Of a stretch of DNA of 64,000 nucleotides, positions 30,001 through 36,000 are shown in pieces; the stretch's first letter is position 1, and each line of letters starts with the position of its first letter. Source of the DNA: Escherichia coli (GTDB lineage Bacteria > Pseudomonadota > Gammaproteobacteria > Enterobacterales > Enterobacteriaceae); assembly GCF_003018115.1 (NCBI RefSeq), contig NZ_CP027458.1; one strand, written 5' to 3'. The position numbers were made by a program.

Positions 30001-33000
30001 GGACTGTGGTGGATGCTGGTATGTCGTGGAAGGTGACGGACACCCTGGCGCTGAATGCTGCTGTGAATAATGTGCTCAACAAGGATTACAGTGATGTAAG
30101 CCTGTACCGTGCCGGCAGCAGCACGCTTTATGCCGGTGATTACTTCCAGACGGGAGCCTCGACAACGGGCTATGTGATACCTGAGCGAAATTACTGGATG
30201 TCGCTGAACTATCAGTTCTGATAACAATAAAAATCCATTACTGACGGTAGCATACGTTGTCACTGTAGCTCCAGGTGGAACAGTGGCAACGTTTTAAGGT
30301 TAAGTGAATTTCTGACCTGCTAATGAGATTTCGGTAAATGTTAACGGAGAGATGTAGTTACGCTCATTTATTGGTGAGATTTACGTTTCTGCCTCCGTGA
30401 GCGCACTGAACGCAATTTATCCGTTAGCAGGCATGAAAATGGCAAAAGCTCAAAGAGCGTAGTGTTAACCGTAAAATCCAGTTACTGTTTGCCCTCGTAT
30501 CCATCGAGATAAACCGCAGAAATGGTGTCTGCCATTAGTTTCATTTTTTTCGGCGAAGGCATATCGCTGTTTGTGTATTTTCTGCCAGCAAAGGTTGTTG
30601 TACTCTGGAGTGAATGAAAAAATTTTTCTGAGTGGAATTCTTTTACACGTTGCTGTACCATTTCTGCTGATACTCCGGCTGCTTTGTCTTTCACCCCCAT
30701 ATCCCGGAACTGCTGAAAGAATGGGATCATCATTCGTATGGTGTCTGCTTTCTGAGTGTAGAAGTTAGGATCAAAACCATCATCTGAAGCATAAACATAA
30801 TGCCGGGTATGTCGTTCCAGGCTGGTCTTTGGTGTGCATCCTGTAAGAGCGATAGTTGCAGTTATCAGAGGGATCAGAAGCAGCCTGACGGAAGAAAATC
30901 TCATGAGCATCTCCTTATCTTTAATCACTAGTTCTCATTGCGTTATATATCCATCGATATATTATCACCTGTTTCCGTCTGTGTTCATTACCTTAAAAAT
31001 ATGCTGCCGAAACAGAATTACGGTTAGTCACAAGGTTCATTGCAACGGTAGCGGCCTGAACAAAATGACGAAGGTGGGTATGTCTGAAAGCGAGCCAAGA
31101 ACAGGGGACTGACGTTACAGACAGCGGCAATCACGTTATGGAACAAGGTATACATAAAGAGCCATTGAGGCCCTGAAACGAAAAAAGTGACGTCGGGTCA
31201 CATCTGGGAAAACCTTCATTTTTACGCCCGTAAGGTGATGAATGACGCCCCCGTGTGGCAGTGTACTTTGGCTCTTACCTGAAAAAGCCGCCGGTGCCGA
31301 TGAGTCGTCTGGAGCATTATGCCGGTCAGGATGAAATTGGTCTGCGTTACAACAGTCACCGCACATGGCGGGAAGAATACTTGGTGATGAGTGGCGATGA
31401 GTTTATGGAAAAACTCTCCTTGCATGTGGCAGATAAGGGGTTCCGTATGGTGAGGTACTACGGGTTCCTGAGCCCGGCGAAACGGCGCTTACTGGAAGAT
31501 GTTGTGTACGCCATAACGGAGACAGTGAGAAAAACGGCAAGGCAAATAACATGGAGGGGGATGTATCAGTGGTTATTGAAGGTTGACCCGCTGAAATGCG
31601 TGCGGTGCGGAAGTCAGATACGTTTTACGGGACTTAAGCGGGGATACCGTCTGGCAGAGCCTGATGCACAAGCCGCTGGCACGAATGCTGTGGTGCGGCT
31701 GAGAGCCGCAGAGGGGAAGCTACGTCCATGTTGAGGGAAACGGAGCAAAAAAGCCTCATTCATACCCTGTATCAATCAGTGTCACCCGGTTTAATAGTCA
31801 TTTCCGTTCATATGGAGCACAAGGAGTTTTGAAGAAACATCCGTTTTGTGGTGTTTTTTTAATCTTTTGGGAATTTTAATTCCTGTCGTTCAGGCAGAAG
31901 AAACAGATGAATGCTCTCTGTGACAGCCATATTGTCACGGGGCTTAATACCGTTTGTTAAAAAACGTACTTTGCGTACGGTTGGGCTTCAGACCCTGTAA
32001 ACGCCAGGCAGCAGCCGTGGTTAAGATAATGTTCAACGGCAACCGCCTCCCAAATTCTGGTCTGACAGGTAATAGGTGTTGGCTCCGCGCTTGCCGTTGG
32101 TGGTTGTTCTGGTAACGGTGATTTGCCCTGCCTGTTCCAGTATCTGAATTGCCCGCTTAACACTCTGTCGACTAATACCGGAGAGGCTTACCAGTTCAGT
32201 GATTGAGATTTGATTTTGTCCGGCAGCAATGACGCTGGCGATTACACACAGGATTGAATTTGTCGTTTTCAATGTCAGCGCTCCTTATCCTGCCAGGCCA
32301 TGTTTTTTCTTGCAGCTGTCTGGATGTCGTCCGAAGGTCATCGAATTATAGTTCAAAGAAAAAAGATATCGAGCAATGCGCGTTCTTTTTCTCCTTATGC
32401 CGCGTCAGCGGCATGGAAGGCGGCACTCCGTTGTTGCATATGGTACTGGAGTAAAACCGCCGAAGCCCGGCGTAAGCCGGTACTGACTAATAGATTTCAC
32501 CTTACCCATCCCCGCCCTGCTAAGCCATACCCGCTGTCAGCCATGATGAAGTAAGAGTGCGCGGTCGGAGTGGTCCCGACGAGGGTTTACCCGAAGTCGG
32601 GGCGTATCTCCGCGTTAGCGGGCCGTCAGGGCCGCTTACGAGCGTGTACTGAGGACTTCCAACCATAAGACTGACAGCGACGATGCTGCTTAGTTACAAC
32701 ATTCATAATTAAAAGCGACTCTGTTCCGGCCCTTTGGGCCGGGGCGGGGCCGCTTTTCAGTTATGAGGGAGGGGCTTTGTGGTTTCAGTTCTGCGTGGGA
32801 CCGGGGTTTTTCTGGTGGTTGTGTTTGAGTGTTGTAACTAAAGTGGCTCCGGTCGGGGCCCGCCGCTTGCGGTGGGAGGTGCATATCTGTCTGTCCATAG
32901 GACAGGCAGTGAATAGGTTTTCTTTTTAAATGAATGTAATTAAGTAGTTTAAAGGAGATATAAACAGGTGTTTAAAAGATACATTGCACCCTGTAAGACT

Positions 33001-36000
33001 GGCGGCTGGCGCTTTATGGCATGAACGGTTGTAACCTTATGGTGAAGTCCCTTGCAATTAAATGTGGATAAACAAAATTCCACGTCTGTGAGGCGTGTTT
33101 TGTATCAAAAACAGGGGGAGCGGATGCACCAGAAGCTGGATGATGAGATTGTTTTTTGGGATGTGGTGCTGATTTTTTGTGCGCTGTCGGGCTTCAGACG
33201 TGCGGAAGCCCGACAGCGCGGGCCGGATTATTCAGATGAGGTCAAACTCAGGGGGAGGCTGTGGCCAGCCGTGTGTAGTTGTTGTTCCGCGACATTATCA
33301 TGCGTTCCTTCACGCGACGGTCGATTTCGCGCTTCACCGCCTCCAGGCTTCCTCTGAAGCGCCCTTCCGCGATTTCACGCGTCAGCTGCCGTTTCACCAG
33401 GGTGACGATATCCTGACGTTCCCTGTTCGCATCACGACGCGCACGGGCACGTTTTATTCCCCGGGACTTAAGCTCTGTCTGGTAACTGCGGAAACGCTCA
33501 CGGACAAAACGCCAGGCTTTCGCTATCAGTTCATCCATACCCAGGGTATCCAGCCCCTGCTTTTTGCGCTGTCTGTTTTCCCATTCAACACGACTGCGGC
33601 GCGCAGCCGCCACTGCATCCTCAGACACATCAAGGGCAGCAAACAGAGCCGGTGTGAACGTGATGTCGGTCGGAATGTAGCACCCAATAAGCGGATCATA
33701 TTCCGTCTGGTAGGTAATCAACCCCAGCTCTGACAGGAACGTCAGGGCACGGGTGGCACGGGTGATGGAGAGTTTTCCGGCAGCAGACTCCGTCGCCAGT
33801 CCGCACTCAATGGCCAGTGTGGTGATGGAGCACTGGACGCGGTTGGCCAGCGGGTCATAGTGGAAACACAGCCCCTGCAGGAGCGCATCAATAGCCCGTC
33901 GACGCAGCACCGGTGGCATGCGCCGACGCAGACCACGCGAACGGGCATGCGCCACATGAATAGCGAAATCAAAACGGGAAGTGAAGCCCACCGCCTTTTC
34001 CATCAGTTTTTCGCAGAACTTCAGCGTTCCGGCACCTTTACGGGGTGTAAACACCGGATTCGGGTTCTTTACCTGGCGGTAATACGTTTGTTGAAGATCA
34101 GTCACACCATCCCGCACTTACAATGCGCAGAAGGAGTGAGCACAGAAAGAAGTCTTGAACTTTTCCGGGCATATAACTATACTCCCCGCATAGCTGAATT
34201 GTTGGCTATACGGTTTTTAGATGGCCCCGGTAATCTTCTTAGTCGCCAAACTTGTCGAAGATTATCGGGGTTTTTGCTTTTCTGGCTCCTGTACATCCAC
34301 ATCAGAACCAGTTCCCTGCCACCTTATGGCGTGGCCAGCCACAAAATTCCTTAAAACGATCAGCAATCTAACATCTCATCACTGATACAGCAAGAAACGC
34401 AAATATTCACAAAGATTTTCTGCGCTTAACCTCTGACTCTATCAGCCACTCAAGCATCTGTGCCTGAGTGATCCCGTCTTCATCAGCAAGCTCACTTAAC
34501 TTTTCTTTCAAGCGAAGCTGAATGACGGCATGAAACGCTTTATGAGTGGCACTCCTTCTTGCGAGAGACGCTTTTTGTCGTTCTCTCGCAGGAACAGGAT
34601 TCCCCCTTCTGTAAGGTCGCTTTTTTCCCGATGAGGAAGTCTCTGCATTTACTGTCTGCGACATCTCGCCTCCTCTCTTCTCAGACAGGGATCGTTTCGC
34701 AGAGGATACTACAGTTTTTTGAAATCAGCGACTTGAGAATTGTGACGAAGATCTGTGTTGGCGCACAAATCAACGGGGATTACTGTTGTTTAATGTGATT
34801 TTTGTTGCGAAATGGCTGAAAAACAGGAAATGCCTTAACCTGTGTGCCGGCCCCGGGCGGGACCGGCGGTTTCTGGCATGTCGGGTGTCTGCCCCTGAAA
34901 TACCTCACACTTCCGGAAAGCGGGGACTTCCGTCCCCGCCCGGCAGCTTACTTCCGTGCTTCGTAGGCCAGAGTTACCTGCACCACTGTATTTCCCCTGT
35001 GAATATTCAGCTCACATAACCGTTCCCTGAATATCAGTGAAAAACACAACACCGTGGCGCACACGGCGAGCAACCCAATAAGGGTATATTTCGTCATAAA
35101 CTTTGACCTCTCTGCAAGGAAGAGGCTACAATCAGTAGTGCTACGTACTTCATGCAGGCCTCACGAGTTAATGGATTAACAAGTGGGGTCTTCGCATTTC
35201 TGGTACCTGCGTCTTGCCTGAACCAGAAAGGCTCAGACACCCGCCGCGATAATACCACATTCCCTGTTGCTGACTATTCCCTCCATTTCCCGCTTTTCGC
35301 TACAGAAACGCCGGGGACGGGGAAAACTTGCTTTTTCCCGTCCCCGGGGTTGGACAACTGAGCAACGCGAAGGCGTCAGTGGATTTTTATGATCCTTCCA
35401 AACTCTGCTTCCATTTTTTTCATATCCTGTTCTCTTACTGCGACTATCAGTTGTTTTCCTGATTTTCGTGCCACTCTGGCAAACTGCATGACGGCAGATT
35501 CATTATTCAAATCAGGCCATCCTGTACAATTAAAAATAATAATATGCTCACTGGCGTTCAGTGCATCCCTGATAAAAATAACCGCATAATCATTTAATGT
35601 TCTGTCAGAACAACTGTAAATCTGGCTGAAATCATAATACTTATAATCAGTGATATTCAGTTTATTTAAAAAACCATCAACTTCAGAAGCTGAGTCCCCA
35701 CTATAAGAACATTATGATTAGACGATGTGATTAATTCTGATACTGCCTGATAGTTCATTTGTTCACCTTTCATTAACAGAGAAATAAGTTAATAATGTAA
35801 TATGCTTCATGCTTTTAAATATCGCATTTCAATGAGAACTCAATAGCCACAGAAATATCATTATTTCCGTGAGCGCCATACCCAGGGCGGAACAGGAGCG
35901 CTGTCTGCCCACAGACCACGTTTCTGCTGTCGAGCTTCTCCCTGCAGGACGGGAAGAACAGGATCGGTGTTGTACTGCTCATAAACCCATGCAGCGCCTG

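Follow-up and report, generated by a model that had tools for sequence, protein, structure and literature searches.

Organization of an IncFII-family basic replicon beside a virulence block on an F-type plasmid of Escherichia coli

The subject of this study is the replication control module in a 64,000-nucleotide stretch of Escherichia coli DNA (NCBI RefSeq assembly GCF_003018115.1, contig NZ_CP027458.1), which is referred to below as the window. A reading of the sequence alone, the original prediction, had placed a complete IncFII-type module in canonical order at positions 33000–34664. Pfam and Rfam searches, colinearity with plasmid R100, and identity with replicons of Shiga toxin-producing E. 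coli (STEC) bore this out. Reading of the sequence and listing of the open reading frames (ORFs) in 32400–35400 gave a minus-strand module that runs, from high to low coordinates, through copB/repA2, CopT opposite a plus-strand copA gene, tap, repA1, and oriR. None of these parts contained a frameshift, stop, or insertion. The limits first proposed were too narrow, because the lower one truncates oriR and the upper one omits the copB promoter region; the AT-rich half of oriR and a pair of Ter-like sites extend below 33000, to ~32690. The features are as follows:

34665..34800, minus strand: region upstream of copB, putative site of the constitutive copB/repA2 promoter, assigned by identity to R100, in which this region holds it
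34407..34664, minus strand: copB/repA2, 85 amino acids, predicted transcriptional repressor of the repA promoter; Pfam RepB-RCR_reg (PF10723), 90.6 bits, E 6e-26
34365..34393, minus strand: PrepA, candidate regulated repA promoter, TTGCTG-17-TAGATT, proposed from conservation across three replicons
34103..34363, minus strand: FII replicon-sequence-typing amplicon, 261 bp, located with the published FII primers
34190..34279, plus strand: copA antisense RNA gene, ~90 nt, two stem-loops, Rfam RF00042; CopT is the complementary minus-strand stretch in the repA mRNA leader
34155..34183, plus strand: CopA promoter, TTGAAC-17-TATACT, the sole sigma-70-like match in 32600–34900
34098..34172, minus strand: tap/repA6 leader peptide, 24 amino acids, with its stop TGA (34100..34098) overlapping the repA1 start region; Pfam RepA1_leader (PF08048), 54 bits
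33248..34105, minus strand: repA1 initiator, 285 amino acids, GTG start at 34105; Pfam IncFII_repA
33181..33219, no strand assigned: perfect 15-bp inverted repeat with a 9-nt loop and 100% complementary arms, found by repeat search
32905..33092, minus strand: oriR, approximate limits, with a DnaA box at 33063..33071 and an AT-rich half at ~32904–32960
32691..32700, minus strand, and 32831..32840, plus strand: inverted pair of Ter-like cores GTTGTAACTA in the repA4/ter region past oriR, conserved in R100

The reverse complement of 32654–34800 was colinear with the R100 basic replicon for ~2.15 kb, from upstream of repA2 to past the origin, with a mean identity of 92%. Counts per 50 nt gave 92–100% identity outside two mosaic blocks; identity was this high, for example, upstream of copB, in the CopA promoter and tap, through the first ~240 codons of repA1, around the DnaA box, and past oriR. 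The first mosaic block (34351–34600) covers the body of copB and ~50 nt downstream and was 36–60% identical to R100; the second (33203–33352) covers the 3′ end of repA1 and the start of the repA-oriR spacer and was 74–82% identical. Two plus-strand ORFs antisense to repA1 (33179..33733 and 33860..34354) were set aside as by-products of coding sequence rich in GC; they are annotated in no relative. In some relatives, RefSeq calls a 50-amino acid "replication protein RepA" ORF (1821..1973, plus strand, in one record) on the strand opposite repA, in the copA/copB-tap interval. The call is probably inherited from older annotation or an artefact, and not a true gene.

All three proteins scored above the curated Pfam cut-offs. 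For RepA1 the score was 93.8 bits against a cut-off of 22.9, which identifies it as an initiator of the IncFII RepA family (PF02387). Its frame is open over 33248..34117 (minus strand, 289 amino acids), and the GTG at 34105 agrees with the GTG start proposed earlier and is the start in R100 and in RefSeq relatives. RepA1 was 94% identical to R100 RepA1 over 285 amino acids without gaps, with the last ~35 codons diverging, and the ratio of nonsynonymous to synonymous substitution (dN/dS) relative to R100 was 0.126 (Nei-Gojobori), consistent with purifying selection. All 285 residues matched WP_000130991.1. The start of the R1 repA primer, GTGACTGATCTTCAACAAAC, occurs identically in the window (primer sequence from PMC5883639).

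The repA2 (copB) gene of the original prediction, whose minus-strand orientation had been left unstated, is present as an intact repressor gene upstream of repA, as in other members of the family; repression is its predicted role. All 85 residues of CopB matched WP_000084404.1, the annotated CopB of STEC and Shigella FII plasmids, and identity was 82% to RepA2 of F RepFIC and 46% to RepA2 of R100. Upstream of copB, the two blocks within 34701–34800 matched R100 at 47/50 and 50/50 positions, and block 34651–34700, which includes the first 14 nt of copB, matched at 45/50. The geometry of the candidate PrepA was found by alignment in both R100 (TTGAGT-17-TAGATT) and F (TTGCTT-17-TAGATT); the candidate falls in the block that diverges from R100 along with copB.

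The leader peptide gene tap was absent from the elements listed originally. The Tap peptide is identical to R100 Tap at 24/24 residues, differs from that of F at 2/24, and matches WP_001365705.1 over its full length. At the tap/repA1 junction the minus strand reads GGATGGTGTGACTGA (GGA TGG TGT GAC TGA), and the repA1 GTG lies 2 nt before the tap stop, so that GTGACTGA contains both the GTG of repA1 and the TGA of tap. A Tap/RepA6 peptide whose stop overlaps the repA1 start is typical of the family, and this overlap is the arrangement needed for translational coupling, which we predict here from the sequence.

The Rfam match to CopA spanned model positions 1–92 of 92 with 98 bits (gathering score 60; E 1.7e-18). 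The RNA folded into two stem-loops at −32.9 kcal/mol (z −4.34; 0/200 shuffles as good), with a CGCCAA hexaloop on stem-loop II. An antisense-oriented terminator hairpin had been noticed as consistent with CopA; it proved to be stem-loop II of a full-length plus-strand CopA, a long, imperfect hairpin with arms at 34225–34238 and 34257–34270 followed by a T-run. The CopA promoter, overlooked at that stage, ends 6 nt before the Rfam-predicted 5′ end of CopA and lies in a block (34153–34202) that is 50/50 identical to R100. The window thus contains a two-stem-loop CopA-type antisense RNA opposite the repA leader with a promoter of its own, the form found in this family. On the minus strand, the 3′ end of CopT (...CAGCTAT) is directly followed by GCGGGGAG, the tap Shine-Dalgarno sequence, then by 9 nt and the tap ATG. 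In the work of Blomberg, Wagner and Nordstrom on R1, this geometry reportedly lets the CopA-CopT duplex block tap translation. A local match of CopT to the Rfam PK-repZ model (21.5 bits; gathering score 44) was rejected as a shared loop motif.

The downstream DnaA box expected from the original reading is present as the 9-mer TTATCCACA at 33063..33071 (minus strand). The bare 9-mer occurs twice in the window versus 0.61 expected, which is not significant alone; the box is instead supported by positional homology, because in the colinear alignment it is the counterpart of the R100 oriR box. We take the DnaA box of R1 to lie near the repA-proximal end of oriR, and this places oriR of the window at roughly 32905–33092. 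The 50-nt blocks from 33152 to 32854 were identical to R100 at 46–50 of 50 positions, with the AT-rich block 32904–32953 at 50/50. Downstream of repA there is thus an oriR that has both a DnaA box and an AT-rich segment, as in the family as a whole. The oriR of R1 is 188 bp and contains DnaA-box1, whose flanks match those of the window box (PMC5883639). The repA-oriR spacer, called "CIS" in R1, contains the inverted repeat at a distance of 29 nt from the end of repA1; in R100 the left arm of the repeat is imperfect. Lacking a T-run, the repeat is not a classic intrinsic terminator. The Ter-like core had only two matches in the 64 kb, versus 0.09 expected by chance; the pair fits the ter sites described in the repA4 region (PMC4398462).

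From these results, we conclude with high confidence that the window contains an intact basic replicon of the IncFII (R1/R100, RepFIIA/RepFIC) family on a large F-type virulence plasmid of an STEC strain negative for the locus of enterocyte effacement (LEE). The presence, order, intactness, and homology of all its parts were observed directly. It belongs to an already known group, among the best-studied plasmid replication units, and its protein products are already in RefSeq. By sequence comparison the replicon is a mosaic, in which RepA1, Tap, and the origin are R100-like, CopB is RepFIC-like, and stem-loop II of CopA is of a widespread non-R100 class.

An alternative is that the replicon belongs with RepFIC of F/P307 and not with RepFIIA. 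We consider this unlikely. The 82% identity of CopB to RepA2 of F RepFIC fits a RepFIC assignment, as do the hok/sok-copB-tap layout shared with F and the "IncFIC" that MOB-suite adds for p_STEC1588_2 (NZ_CP129265.1), a plasmid with an identical typing segment. CopA, however, has 12 differences from that of F and so is predicted not to share the F/P307 RepFIC specificity; Tap departs from F at two residues yet is identical to R100; and F has no intact repA1 for comparison. The labels themselves are unreliable. In PLSDB, MOB-suite calls R100 itself "IncFIA", the relatives of the window "IncFIA,IncFIB", and p_STEC1588_2 "IncFIA,IncFIB,IncFIC" despite the identical typing segment. Because of the label given to R100, we rejected these labels as evidence against IncFII, and they are unusable for judging FII status.

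The functional steps of the IncFII-family replicon are ones that we infer from R1/NR1, for which the mode of action is established. The repA mRNA would be transcribed from two promoters, a constitutive one upstream of copB and, just past the gene, one that CopB represses. Constitutively made CopA (~90 nt) would pair with CopT in the leader, starting from a loop-loop contact of stem-loop II, and the duplex would end 2–3 nt upstream of the tap Shine-Dalgarno sequence, blocking tap translation. Since the repA1 GTG overlaps the tap stop, RepA1 synthesis would be translationally coupled to tap; the concentration of CopA would track copy number and in this way set the level of RepA1. Acting in cis at oriR beside the DnaA box, RepA1 would open the AT-rich segment for unidirectional theta replication, with the paired Ter sites just beyond. 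The R1 basic replicon and its oriR/DnaA/RepA mechanism have been described (PMC5883639).

Judged from its sequence, the FII unit is very probably replication-competent. The original description of a functional-looking replicon holds in that every part is intact; it was drawn from intactness by itself, and relatives carry a second replicon, RepFIB. Several points weigh against our reading. A simple sigma-70 consensus scan of 32600–34900 detected neither the copB promoter nor PrepA, the candidate PrepA scoring below the threshold of the scan. With CopB just 46% identical to the R100 repressor, its operator is assumed. Function is deduced from intactness and from the dN/dS of repA1, and the prediction of CopA specificity given below uses sequence differences and crude duplex energies for the apical segment. 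In addition, the RepFIB initiator of p_STEC1588_2 (1..978), the nearest complete relative, shares its protein accession with that of F and adjoins ehxD, which implies a second replicon a few kb beyond the low end of the window; the 64-kb window contained no second F-type initiator, and no RepFIB, FIA or FIB locus was seen in it. The host plasmid is probably multi-replicon, and its survival is therefore no proof that the FII unit fires. By analogy with F, which carries a disrupted RepFIC, it could persist with an inactive FII replicon.

These points lead to a second alternative, that the FII module is intact in sequence yet redundant or silent, with RepFIB driving replication and FII a decaying passenger like RepFIC of F. 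The identity of the p_STEC1588_2 RepFIB initiator to that of F, its location beside ehxD, the IncFIB listed by MOB-suite for relatives, and the precedent of F for inactivation of an FII-like replicon in a multi-replicon plasmid are all consistent with it. Decay, on the other hand, is not what the module displays: all of its parts are free of frameshifts, stops, and insertions, repA1 has a dN/dS of 0.126, and oriR is 92–100% identical to R100; no RepFIB was seen within the window itself. In the multi-replicon F plasmid pEC958, moreover, for which a matching set of parts has been described, transposon-directed insertion-site sequencing (TraDIS) identified RepFII as the active replicon: maintenance requires it, replication depends on its copA, repA6, repA1, repA4, and origin, and the plasmid can replicate without the second replicon (PMC4398462). 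We regard a silent module as improbable and favor a replication-competent FII unit.

R1 CopA is of the R100 specificity type. CopA of the window had 11 differences from that of R100 in 90 nt, seven of them in the apical part of stem-loop II, among which are a 2-nt indel and an exchange of C and G between the sides of the upper stem (window GACAAGTTTGGCGACTAAG; R100 TTCAACTTTGGCGAGTACGAA). The apical segment of F reads ATCTAGTTTGGCGACGAGGAG in place of GACAAGTTTGGCGACTAAG. Relative to the resistance plasmid pEG430-2 (LT174531.1) there were three differences, one of them apical. Crude estimates of the apical duplex energy of window CopA were −31.8 kcal/mol with its own CopT, −31.9 with that of pEG430-2, −15.3 with that of R100, and −20.4 with that of F. 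In a related case, three mismatches in the CopA specificity loop kept an anti-F cassette from displacing pEK499, and displacement returned once a matching copAB was added (PMC6961859). In light of that case and of the CopA differences, the replicon is predicted to be compatible with R1/R100 and with F/P307 RepFIC; it is possibly incompatible with FII plasmids of the pEG430-2 type.

A strict classical IncFII replicon, sharing the CopA specificity of R1/R100 and incompatible with them, would fit the near identity to R100 of RepA1, tap, CopA stem-loop I, the CGCCAA hexaloop, and oriR, but is most doubtful given that stem-loop II is not that of R1/R100, that the duplex estimate drops from −31.8 kcal/mol (self) to −15.3 kcal/mol with R100, that three loop mismatches abolished cross-displacement in the related case (PMC6961859), and that CopB is just 46% identical to R100. 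The label IncFII, as used here for the mosaic replicon, therefore denotes a replicon family and not incompatibility with R1/R100. The replicon is likely to be compatible with classical IncFII plasmids and may interfere with the widespread FII resistance plasmids of the pEG430-2 kind.

The module had also been suggested as an anchor for incompatibility typing. This stands for sequence typing, because the 261-bp FII amplicon maps; classical R1/R100 incompatibility is not implied, given the 11 CopA differences. The FII typing primers are expected to give a product of 258–262 bp (PMC11312129), and the window contains a copA-repA segment of that size bounded by the primer sites, the FII locus of the IncF replicon sequence typing scheme. 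One mismatch occurs in the reverse primer site (34103..34120), and one T is inserted in the forward site (34343..34363; TTTT versus TTT in R100, F, and pEG430-2); an ungapped search for the forward primer with up to three mismatches gave no match, and the site was found with a pattern adjusted for the insertion. With these changes in the primer sites, PCR typing of this allele may be less efficient. The inner 259 bp were 100% identical in six PLSDB records only; the next class of typing segments comprises more than 1300 records at 95–99% and is 97.3% identical to the window, and the value for the typing segment of the pEG430-2 class is likewise 97.3%. The exact allele is rare and so far confined to STEC plasmids. 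It is conceivable, as a long shot, that the rare typing segment, the T insertion in the repA mRNA leader, the distinct RepA1 C terminus (RGSL...ID...M...N..T), and the perfected spacer hairpin mark a sublineage that differs in its copy-number set-point or in its incompatibility. If true, such an STEC-restricted sublineage could help virulence plasmids coexist with common FII resistance plasmids.

The original prediction placed a virulence block beside the replicon, and the surrounding genes agree with it. On the low-coordinate side are a small helix-turn-helix (HTH) gene, an IS91-family transposase remnant, iha, a YadA-type adhesin, insertion sequence (IS) elements, an EpeA-like autotransporter protease, a 1437-amino acid trimeric autotransporter, and ehxCA (EhxA 2313 bits; cut-off 2000); iha, the trimeric autotransporter adhesins, the EpeA-like protease, and ehxCA make up the block. 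The high-coordinate side is the usual F backbone, with hok/sok, thermonuclease, finO (NCBIfam 341 bits), traX, traI, and traD. The ehx/epeA/saa-like/iha virulence block is thus carried by an F-type backbone whose FII-family replicon is intact, and exact coordinates are available for replicon typing; the mosaic makeup and the rarity of the exact typing allele are worth carrying forward.

Other features were noted in these surroundings. A hok/sok type I toxin-antitoxin system lies directly upstream of copB (34948..35242, minus strand), with a 49-amino acid Hok ORF at 34948..35097 (Pfam Hok) and sok RNA at 35087..35242 (Rfam 93 bits); its position is that of the hok/srnB gene next to F RepFIC. 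Between the replicon and iha are the IS91-family (Y2_Tnp) transposase remnant (31255..31734, plus strand) and the HTH gene, which is MarR-like and encodes 79 amino acids (32033..32272, minus strand). The HTH gene is shared by relatives, but what follows it varies among them (cdiA, IS600, or iha), as would be expected at a recombination junction. Three plus-strand ORFs in 11045..14797, of 518, 239, and 471 amino acids, have the sizes of the L-lactate permease, (Fe-S)-binding protein, and LutB of NZ_CP027581.1 and, by this match in size, look like a lactate-utilisation cluster inside the virulence block. In the leading and transfer region, Rfam matches at gathering level to F-plasmid antisense RNAs were found on the plus strand for AS-pc02 (36499..36641), AS-traI (41573..41649), and AS-traG (50961..51046).

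In PLSDB, at least 5000 plasmids matched the 2.1-kb replicon segment. Six were at least 99% identical over that segment; all were from E. coli, of human stool or beef origin, and were annotated repA/tap/repA. The STEC plasmids pMFDS1006657 (NZ_CP073590.1), NZ_CP075641.1, and NZ_CP027581.1 were 99.7–99.8% identical over 2.1 kb, and the annotated CopB, Tap, and RepA1 of pMFDS1006657 were identical to the window proteins. These three and p_STEC1588_2 share the identical 259-bp typing segment and have flanks as in the window (HTH gene, hok, thermonuclease, finO, traX, and traI); none of the four was 100% identical over a larger context. p_STEC1588_2 was the best match over 8 kb (98.3%), with 95.1% identity over the replicon segment and 10 differing residues in RepA1.

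The IncB, IncI-alpha, and IncL/M replicons (Rfam PK-repZ) resemble the module in the antisense RNA, the leader-peptide coupling, and the UUGGCG target loop motif, but have a different initiator family; with no match to their pseudoknot model in the window, the module is not a member of that group. The widespread class of FII resistance plasmids from Shigella and E. coli (pEG430-2 and pSF2a23_OXA-181, NZ_PP417752.1) has identical CopB and Tap and ~95.5% replicon identity; it differs by 12 RepA1 substitutions, mostly C-terminal, and carries DUF2726 upstream without hok/sok. RepFIC of F (NC_002483.1, 2926–3924) and P307 has the same hok-repA2-copA-tap layout as the window, and the region around the candidate PrepA is closer to F than to R100; in F, however, a transposon disrupts repA1 after tap, whereas repA1 of the window is intact. 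RepFIIA of R100/NR1 (NC_002134.1, 88253–90400) has the same order of repA2, copA (antisense), tap, repA1, oriR, and ter region, and its oriR, AT-rich region, DnaA box, CopA promoter, and CopA stem-loop I were 92–100% identical to the window. Upstream of copB, R100 carries hha and a DUF2726 gene, whereas the window has hok/sok. The likeness to R1 rests on primer sequences, in that the repA 5′ sequence GTGACTGATCTTCAACAAAC and the flanks of DnaA-box1 (TTATCCACA) match the window (PMC5883639). The basic replicon of R1 (CopA/CopT, CopB, Tap, RepA, and oriR1) consists of the same parts as that of the window, and the two would work by the same mechanism.

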